Origin: a virus
Lineage: Duplodnaviria > Heunggongvirae > Uroviricota > Caudoviricetes
Reading direction: 5' to 3' (one strand)
DNA: 39,175 nucleotides
IMG/VR virus record: IMGVR_UViG_2627853910_000005
The first letter of the stretch is position 1, and every line of letters starts with the position of its first letter. Positions 32,231-32,440 of this stretch are shown in pieces. The notes under the pieces were generated by a model, which made no database searches, was not told the origin of the DNA, and saw only the letters and a list, made by a program, of their open reading frames with translations. The position numbers and the translations under genes were made by a program.

Positions 32231-32304
32231 ACCGGTCACCACAACAGCCACTGCTTTGGCGGTACCAGTTTGTACACTTGCTTCCGGCTGGTACCGCTCT
32301 TTTT
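32231..32304 (+). ncRNA. Candidate DicF-like small RNA ending in an intrinsic terminator
   Basis: TTTGGCGGTACCAGTTT is nearly identical to the core of E. coli DicF as I recall it (UUUGGCGGUAUCAGUUU). It is followed by a 10-bp stem (GCGGTACCAG / CTGGTACCGC) and TCTTTTT. Located downstream of the repressor gene, as dicF is in Qin. Confidence 0.35.
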
Positions 32305-32440
32305 ACAAAACAGAGAAGAGCATCACCGGACGACGAGCTGATAACCCAATCCATCCGGGCGGCTGCCACCCAGGTGTTCTTCTCTGTTTTGTGGAGAAAC
32401 CAACCGACCTTGCAGGGTCGATATGATGAGGAGCAGCAAA

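Follow-up and report, generated by a model that had tools for sequence, protein, structure and literature searches.

A putative DicF/STnc100-type small RNA with a RybB-like seed in the early-left leader of an Escherichia coli lambdoid prophage

The DNA considered here (the window) is the 39,175-nucleotide (nt) IMG/VR record IMGVR_UViG_2627853910_000005, an E. coli lambdoid prophage of the e14/CPS-53/mEp460 type, and the element in question is a cassette of structured RNA lying between its repressor gene and its first early-left gene, yfdP. The gene order is a cro-like gene (30669-30929, minus strand), a cI-like repressor gene of the XRE/S24 type (31027-31719, plus strand), operators, about 600 nt with no annotated or conserved open reading frame (ORF), then yfdP, yfdQ and yfdR; the features described below lie on the plus strand unless another strand is given. 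The repressor gene is followed by an intrinsic terminator (31740-31757; AGCCACC-CGAA-GGTGGCT, then TTTTC), found by a terminator scan 20 nt past the stop codon at 31719. Two 16-bp OL-type operators, TTGCATATCTCGCAAT (31775-31790) and TTGCATAATGCGCAAT (31799-31814), belong to a repeat family with a third copy of the 16-mer in the cI/cro spacer (30992-31007). A putative PL promoter (31799-31827) consists of a -35 hexamer TTGCAT (31799-31804), a 17-nt spacer and a -10 hexamer TATCTT (31822-31827), both hexamers being picked by eye and lying below the cut-off of a consensus promoter scan; its transcripts would start at about 31835. The untranslated early-left leader that would result (31835-32440, about 600 nt) is a mosaic of modules named here A, B, linker, T, H and h, which are found separately in other phages. 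As a whole it folds more stably than shuffled sequences (z = -3.0), and genomes that are 100% identical over it have no feature annotated there. It ends with the Shine-Dalgarno (SD) sequence GAGGAG (32428-32433) and the yfdP ATG at 32441 (together 32428-32443), placed by the RefSeq annotation of an identical genome.

The terminator hairpin T (32259-32304) lies in the last third of the leader, and a first-pass annotation, made from the letters of the window, had seen here a near copy of the core of the prophage small RNA (sRNA) DicF with its own terminator. The core-like stretch TTTGGCGGTACCAGTTT is present at 32255-32271, and the stem is a perfect 10-nt inverted repeat (GCGGTACCAG, 32259-32268; CTGGTACCGC, 32288-32297) that can be extended to 13 bp, encloses a 19-nt loop and is followed by TCTTTTT (32298-32304). 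With its stem of 10-13 bp, its UCUUUUU tract and its covariation, T has the architecture of an intrinsic (Rho-independent) terminator. Orthologs come from e14, Shigella, Citrobacter phage phiNP, Klebsiella, a Salmonella phage, Superficieibacter, Buttiauxella, Mixta, Kosakonia and Pseudocitrobacter. The 13 T orthologs display six stem sequences (e.g., GGCGGUUAUCCA/UGGAUAACCGCC, GUCGGCGUC/GACGCCGAC, and UGCCCAUC/GGUGGGCA), every one fully complementary and followed by C(Y)(Y)UUUUU. Long-loop versions of T are found in Klebsiella, Salmonella, Mixta and Kosakonia (loci L128, L129, L131, L134, and L135), where a loop motif GA(U/C)AA(U/C)GUUCUG is conserved with AGGAGGAAG before it. Locus L131 is a contig labelled Chryseobacterium sp. 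18061 (Bacteroidota) that harbors a typical enterobacterial cassette near the Mixta/Citrobacter versions, and is probably a case of contamination or mis-binning.

The linker immediately upstream of T, A-GCCACUGCUUU-G (32246-32258), harbors the feature on which the interpretation turns. Its 11 central bases (GCCACTGCTTT, 32247-32257) are identical at 11 of 11 positions to nt 1-11 of the host sRNA RybB, i.e., to the RybB 5′ seed GCCACUGCUUUU (RybB sequence from PMC7311995; conserved seed from PMC6694218). The linker exhibits the heptamer GCCACUG together with CACUGCUUU, nine of the ten bases of the sigma-E sRNA seed CRCUGCUUUU. This seed, common to RybB, MicV and VrrA, represses mRNAs of outer-membrane proteins (OMPs) and was re-selected from a random library, and the seed of RybB acts as an autonomous and portable module for OMP repression (PMC6694218). 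By folding, and with a 5′ end placed by reference to DicF biogenesis, the predicted mature sRNA would be about 58 nt long (32247-32304), its 5′ seed of 11 nt lying free ahead of the T hairpin and a U-tail. This 58-nt unit has a minimum free energy (MFE) of -21.2 kcal/mol (z = -3.0 versus shuffled sequences), and the seed is unpaired in its fold. With the verified ompA sequence, the 58-nt RNA is predicted to pair with ompA at +24..+31 (codons 9-11) as RybB does, with a duplex energy of -17.2 kcal/mol versus -17.5 kcal/mol for RybB, and 0.2% of shuffled sequences performed as well. RybB-target-like sites within the phage itself were at chance level.

Two other possible links to RybB were considered and set aside. 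At the 3′ foot of H (32387-32396), another 10 nt, TTTTGTGGAG (UUUUGUGGAG), agree with RybB (nt 26-35); this identity is reached by 5% of shuffles, hence is not significant, and a wider homology of the region with RybB was rejected. A sigma-E-like motif, GGCAATT-N15-TCTGA, is located inside module B (32180-32206) and would start an RNA of about 90 nt including the RybB-type seed. The motif is confined to the window type of module B, the other RybB-type loci being without it, and an independent sigma-E promoter for the sRNA was rejected, the motif being treated as chance.

Regarding the linker in other prophages, the segment between the closing helix of module B and T occurs as discrete alleles in front of the same T hairpin, RybB-type at about 54 loci and RprA-type at about 55 loci. 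Three different B domains precede the RybB-type linker, which does not vary in sequence. The RprA-type linker, (A)UUGCUGUGUGUAGUCUU, is found in e14 and most genera, and 16-18 nt of it are identical to the single-stranded stretch preceding the terminator of the host sRNA RprA. This pre-terminator stretch is reported to serve as a second functional seed of RprA in work by Papenfort et al. in 2015. The copy from Buttiauxella (L133 4612-4710) combines the RprA-type linker with an RprA-like terminator and reaches 40.2 bits with the RprA model, below the gathering threshold of 70; judging by sequence, it is a possibility that the 3′ half of RprA and the prophage cassettes (e14, L002 2985-3005; Buttiauxella) share ancestry. 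Of 5426 complete E. coli genomes, 1357 carry the RybB-type allele, in no case annotated. Among sequenced phages it is found in 29, with mEp460, phage cdtI and 15 Stx2c-converting phages among them. No earlier description of a RybB-like or RprA-like cassette was found in the literature, the coverage of which was incomplete.

The DicF core sequence given in the first-pass annotation, and called approximate there, is correct: K-12 dicF reads TTTGGCGGTATCAGTTT (L006 2513-2529) and agrees with the window at 16 of 17 positions, the likeness running on into the loop (about 21 of 23 positions). Placed after the repressor gene and before yfdP, as had been described, the element also has the location of DicF, namely a repressor-controlled PL-type operon, 3′ of a helix-closed domain and with an intrinsic terminator at its end. 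The Rfam gathering thresholds are 48 bits for DicF (RF00039) and 47 bits for STnc100 (RF02076). True dicF, from the Qin prophage, scores 76.7 bits with the DicF model and is directly followed by an STnc100-type domain, B2, at 34.1 bits. The e14 ortholog (B-linker-T) gives sub-threshold scores with both models, 29.2 bits with STnc100 over the full-length 206-nt model (E = 0.005) and 28.5 bits with DicF (E = 0.011), and the Salmonella-phage ortholog aligns to the full STnc100 model at 37.5 bits, likewise sub-threshold. The window copy was not matched by the DicF model at gathering or at E <= 10 in searches of 851, 253, and 106 nt, which, as the first-pass annotation had itself set out, counts against strict membership of the DicF family. 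Relaxed Rfam scans of the region gave chance-level matches only (hairpin ribozyme, microRNA precursors, U6, and a rydB fragment).

Kinship becomes visible through sister prophages. Qin B1, which makes up the first 137 nt of the 190-nt precursor of DicF, carries the window linker and T directly behind it in other prophages, e.g., at the sister-prophage locus L161, which is composed of Qin B1, a RybB-type linker and T. Since sister prophages join Qin B1 to the window linker and T, the window element and DicF are one scaffold with different linkers and different hairpin 3′ halves. All STnc100 elements can be found in the window at 32111-32304: the closing helix, GGUGAAU and the first hairpin, the 3′ hairpin abutting CACCA, the linker and the terminator. 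DicF itself is made from the transcript of dicBp, a PL-like promoter, by a cut at the base of B1 that yields a 190-nt RNase III-dependent species and an RNase E cut that yields 53 nt, with a 3′ end at the terminator (PMC10448788). STnc100 copies are multi-copy, expressed and verified by Northern blot in enterohaemorrhagic E. coli (EHEC), with no function assigned (PMC5331693, PMC12370729), and a shared ancestry of STnc100 with PasD, with different seeds, has been proposed in a 2026 preprint (PMC13192938). The prophage sRNAs Pas, AgvB and AsxR were considered as relatives and rejected, as they are late-region RNAs whose Rfam models gave no match (PMC13192938, PMC4104026).

With regard to function, the first-pass annotation had pointed to the regulation of host genes such as ftsZ. 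A genuine DicF ortholog, blocking cell division through pairing with ftsZ mRNA, could be argued from the 16/17 core identity, the same genomic position, the same terminator 5′ arm and the shared scaffold ancestry. Against it stand the lack of any match to the Rfam DicF model at E <= 10, even in the 106-nt search, compared with 76.7 bits for true dicF, and the alignment, in which the 5′ single-stranded region of DicF (xylR/pykA pairing) and its ftsZ-pairing loop UUUUACUCC are replaced. Pairing with the ftsZ translation-initiation region does not exceed that of shuffled sequences, the duplex energy in a crude test being -32.0 kcal/mol versus -40.8 kcal/mol for DicF, with 78% of shuffles as good. 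A true ortholog is therefore hardly to be expected; from the sequence comparisons, the window element is a relative of DicF, not DicF, and would not be aimed at ftsZ. What holds of the initial proposal of a DicF-like sRNA candidate is the DicF-type position, the terminator 5′ arm and the scaffold, whereas the family match and the targeting regions do not.

Beyond T, a perfect 14-nt inverted repeat had been noted and proposed as a processing site or attenuator. Its arms, ACAAAACAGAGAAG (32305-32318) and CTTCTCTGTTTTGT (32379-32392), are perfectly complementary and, with G-U pairs, form in the fold a 25-bp stem (32300-32324 / 32373-32397). The whole, named H (32300-32397), is a Y-shaped RNA in which this stem, P1, carries an apex composed of P2 and P3. 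Considering the stretch 32298-32400, the MFE is -44.4 kcal/mol (z = -5.8; 0 of 200 shuffles as good), so that both hairpins of the region, T and H, are more stable than shuffled sequences. An alignment of H from 13 sequences in nine genera was analyzed with RNAalifold and by pair counts, with 500 column shuffles and slid alignments as controls. The consensus is again a Y shape with a P1 of 23 bp and 35 pairs in total, 96.3% of the cells being paired, compared with at most 57% in the slid controls. Six pairs are changed on both sides, a number reached by 2 of 500 shuffles, and the covariation score and the paired fraction were each reached by none of the 500. The folded strand is the plus strand, because of the invariant U-G pairs. 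T and H are thus real conserved RNA structures with compensatory changes in nine enterobacterial genera. The conserved 23-25 bp of P1 suffice for an RNase III substrate (at least 20 bp of mostly regular double-stranded RNA), and the conserved structure is consistent with processing; as for the other function that had been suggested, no alternative pairing for an attenuator was found.

The apex of H has a resemblance of its own. In the 13-sequence alignment (loci L127-L139), the P2 apex of the window, GACGAGCTGATAACCC (32334-32349), is a mutated copy of the consensus GACGGGCTCATAACCC. The family apex in the nine genera, CGGGCUCAUAACCC (GACGGGCUCAUAACCC), matches initiator tRNA-fMet at 14 nt of its anticodon stem-loop, covering the three G-C pairs and the CAU loop; the tRNA-fMet sequence was checked (100% identity, four copies per genome). 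H may then be supposed to be mainly a mimic of the initiator-tRNA anticodon arm, either tRNA-derived or acting as a decoy or a translation-related ligand, a reading to which the richness of the rest of the leader in tRNA-associated modules lends itself as well. It is nonetheless improbable, as the window (GACGAGCUGAUAACCC; GAGCUGAUAACCC) and e14 (GGGUUAAUAACCC) copies are mutated in exactly that motif, the window apex does not fold into P2, neither the Rfam tRNA model nor ARAGORN recognizes a tRNA there, no partner protein is linked, and the downstream gene varies between phages.

Whether the region might encode a small protein was considered next to these structures. ORFs of 41-127 codons can be drawn on both strands, and RefSeq lists ymfH and hypothetical proteins over the homologous stretch. 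No frame, however, is open or in register across the 13 homologs, frames being shifted by indels of 1 nt and about 25 nt in the H apex; neither a start codon nor an SD sequence is conserved over the T/H region among them, the substitutions are compensatory for RNA pairing, and identical genomes are unannotated here. A coding function is very unlikely. ORFs annotated over the structured RNA modules, some of them antisense, include ymfH (K-12 e14; L209 2570-2881), gp36/gp37 on the opposite strand in mEp460 (L214) and other hypothetical ORFs; these are probably spurious, i.e., mis-annotated RNA elements.

The main rival to an sRNA is a leader that functions only in cis, in which T would be a tL-type terminator or attenuation point, H an RNase III site or mRNA-stability element, and the RybB match a coincidence or a trace of shared ancestry. 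Several observations weigh against the sRNA or favor this rival. T and H are conserved as structures, the linker being the least conserved part of the cassette. With its 19-nt loop and only five U residues, T is atypical for a strong terminator or an Hfq module, and the consensus terminator scan did not call it because of this atypical loop. The seed is partly or mostly paired in the precursor and full-leader folds, and the 5′ end of a seed RNA is uncertain because the linker has no obvious RNase E site. The DicF, STnc100 and RybB models of Rfam all fail to match the window copy, and the window H apex departs from the family consensus (G-to-A in the stem, CAU to GAU in the loop). A match to the RybB 11-mer somewhere in the 600-nt leader arises in about 1% of dinucleotide shuffles, and the copy number within E. 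coli is not independent evidence because the copies are near-identical.

Nevertheless, the weight of the RybB match does not come from the match alone but from its position, at what is the functional 5′ end of RybB and in the single-stranded linker of an sRNA scaffold, and from the parallel RprA allele. Chance or simple descent would have to account for two discrete linker alleles, each equal to a functional single-stranded region of a core Hfq sRNA, which have stayed invariant while being moved between three upstream domains. Moreover, the homologous cassette of Qin makes the trans-acting DicF (PMC10448788), and STnc100 copies are expressed in EHEC (PMC5331693). A purely cis-acting leader is considered unlikely, though not negligible. 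The cassette is best described as a new member of the DicF/STnc100 class of prophage sRNAs, with a seed copying RybB, followed by the conserved structured RNA H; the reading in which a putative leader-processed, T-terminated sRNA acts as a RybB mimic and H serves in processing or as a structural element is given a probability of roughly 60%.

The upstream part of the leader is formed by two further modules. Module A (31861-32100), a conserved structured RNA recognized by homology and RNAalifold, is a stretch of about 200-250 nt common to phage P1 and phiV10 (79-83% identity) and to P1-like plasmids. In phage P1 it lies directly 3′ of a tRNA with anticodon CAU and upstream of ban, and in phiV10 directly 5′ of a tRNA-Arg. 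Among the 56 pairs that RNAalifold assigns to it from three sequences, seven have double compensatory changes; it belongs to no Rfam family. Module B (32109-32248), recognized by an inverted repeat and by folds, is an STnc100-like domain closed by its own helix P1 (GTTGTGGTGA, 32111-32120; TCACCACAAC, 32236-32245), which covaries in the Qin, e14 and L161 copies. Over 32099-32246 it is 95% identical to a non-coding stretch of the virulent T1-like Klebsiella/Salmonella phage IME207 (L005 2501-2648), located there about 100 nt upstream of tRNA-Ser and tRNA-Arg, and many Klebsiella phages share its first 40 nt; the identity points to a recent horizontal transfer of a non-coding module. Diverged copies are present in e14 and Qin.

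Several properties of module B are tRNA-like. Its start (32100-32140) is in register with the 5′ half of the real phiV10 tRNA-Arg (L004 2720-2818; GTGGTGA-AT-GCGC-AGGCTGAT-GCGC versus GTGGCAT-TA-GCTC-AGTTGGACA-GAGC), its end is a hairpin abutting the closing helix as a T-arm does against an acceptor stem (32218-32246), and in other phages it adjoins tRNA genes or remnants of tRNA T-arms. Judged on this resemblance, module B may be tRNA-derived. ARAGORN found no tRNA in the window, relaxed-threshold and intron runs on module B gave inconsistent calls, and the Rfam tRNA model was absent from the match lists for module B and the H apex.

Just 5′ of the closing helix of module B, a boxA-like motif, GTGCTCTCA, occupies 32100-32108; most B variants of other genera keep it as G(Y)GCTCT(C/T), the Superficieibacter version being CGCTCTTTTTGA. 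A possible role is that of a NusB/E site shielding the long untranslated leader from Rho. The motif, together with a long structured leader containing a terminator and the lack of a recognizable N as first early-left gene, also raises the possibility that B or H is an RNA antiterminator of the HK022 put type, allowing polymerase to read through T and later terminators. Such a function is very unlikely, given that neither similarity to HK022 putL/putR nor a significant match to the HK022 immunity region was found (putL and putR are detectable as an inverted repeat in HK022 itself), that the PR side of the window has no second put-like copy, that H lies downstream of T, and that B-type domains are also found in late regions and in virulent T1-like phages.

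Downstream of H, a small GC-rich hairpin, h (32405-32420; CGACCT-TGCA-GGGTCG), folds just 5′ of the ribosome-binding site, and orthologs have other hairpins in the same position (GGCGG-TGGCAG-CCGCC; GCCCC-TAC-GGGGC). T, H and h form together a module C (32256 to about 32430) that can be found in thousands of E. coli genomes, including e14 of K-12. In CPS-53 of K-12, in the yfdO-yfdP spacer, homology to the window starts only at ATGATGAGGAG, therefore this prophage is without the leader. pawZ was likewise rejected, being an unrelated tRNA-fragment pseudogene.

As to the rest of the window, its right-hand 11.8 kb matches a prophage remnant of strain 13TMH22 at 99.98% identity, the two being collinear only over 27373-39175 and 1-5046, and the window holds about 22 kb more phage DNA; 13TMH22 has the same prophage with an internal deletion of about 22 kb (window 5046-27373), the window being the fuller prophage. 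A gene for an anti-phage dCTP deaminase (36189-37784) is located between the early-left genes and the integrase gene (37937-39175, minus strand). Two matches to the cspA thermoregulator exceed the Rfam gathering threshold on the minus strand, at 23855-24294 and 20423-20839 (160 and 105 bits, respectively), which indicates that the prophage carries two cold-shock protein genes with 5′ untranslated regions of the cspA type.

It can be hypothesized that the cassette works as follows. When PL fires, T would stop some transcripts and let others pass. If processing follows that of DicF, cuts in the linker and at the base of module B would then free an Hfq-type RNA of about 58 nt (32247-32304), whose free 5′ end GCCACUGCUUU would repress RybB targets, i.e., OMP mRNAs such as ompA and ompC. 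Many outer-membrane proteins are phage receptors. The synthesis of porins and receptors would be lowered at induction, or by leaky expression in lysogens. Read-through transcripts would fold H, whose 23-25-bp stem would most plausibly be an RNase III-type processing site; its cleavage would detach the 3′ end of the sRNA, and the yfdP mRNA would then begin with hairpin h before its ribosome-binding site.

A broader scheme can be entertained tentatively, as possible rather than probable. Lambdoid prophages of Enterobacteriaceae would carry a modular seed-swapping sRNA cassette, in which an exchangeable linker sits between a tRNA-like STnc100-type domain and a DicF-type terminator, together with an H that copies the anticodon arm of the initiator tRNA. 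With it the phage would seize host regulons, in the window by repressing outer-membrane porins and phage receptors as soon as PL fires. Recombination would drop seeds of core Hfq sRNAs into the linker, that of RybB in the window, of RprA in e14 and many genera, and of DicF in Qin. Conversely, core sRNAs such as RprA may descend from prophage cassettes. H could bind, or serve as a decoy for, the translation-initiation machinery or nucleases targeting tRNA-fMet.

If the 58-nt RNA is made and its seed is active, a quarter of sequenced E. coli genomes hold an unannotated second "RybB" under the control of a phage repressor, and Stx2c-converting and cdt phages likewise carry one. Prophage induction would then be tied to a shut-down of OMP synthesis, which would bear on phage receptors, superinfection exclusion and envelope stress; the RybB-type allele is carried by phages plating on K-12, such as mEp460. 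The widespread STnc100/DicF-type prophage RNAs would be explained as a common scaffold with exchangeable seeds, and the exchange of targeting modules between core genome and prophage would provide a concrete route for the origin of new sRNA regulators.

Among known systems, RybB (RF00110) has in common with the window RNA its first 11 nt, the heptamer GCCACUG and the predicted ompA pairing. The rest of the molecule is unrelated, with no model match and no conserved sigma-E promoter, and the seed of the window RNA would be exposed by processing, whereas that of RybB is exposed by transcription initiation. RprA resembles the alternative linker allele through its pre-terminator stretch, and in Buttiauxella through an RprA-like terminator as well, but this allele is not that of the window, and the 5′ stem-loops and rpoS-pairing region of RprA are absent.

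DicF and the window element both belong to a PL-type operon just downstream of a cI-like repressor gene, both have the same kind of helix-closed domain upstream, the terminator-hairpin 5′ arm UUUGGCGGUAYCAGUUU, and another long-stem domain after them. The window element departs from DicF in its linker, which has another sequence and is much shorter at 13 nt, in the 3′ arm and the loop of its hairpin, and in lacking specific complementarity to ftsZ. The succession of a closing helix GGUGAAU..., a 3′ hairpin CACCGG..CCGG, CACCA, a linker and a terminator is common to STnc100/PasD and the window; in contrast with STnc100, the window copy lies below detection, is found in a PL leader instead of a late or stx region, and has a linker that copies the seed of a core-genome sRNA.

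The 3′ external transcribed spacers (ETS) of tRNAs can act as small RNAs, and 3′ETS-leuZ is a sponge complementary to RybB. Module B is not recognized as a tRNA and the window linker is in the same sense as RybB, which sets the two apart; the likeness is that the linker and T lie directly 3′ of a domain in tRNA register that is found beside tRNA genes. Finally, RNase III sites occur in phage early transcripts, e.g., the lambda N leader and the T7 R-sites. H differs from these in its conserved branched apex, with a loop conserved in sequence, and its cleavage is putative. As in the lambda and T7 sites, a stem of more than 20 bp separates the leader from the first early gene, and the new 5′ end of the mRNA would retain a hairpin.

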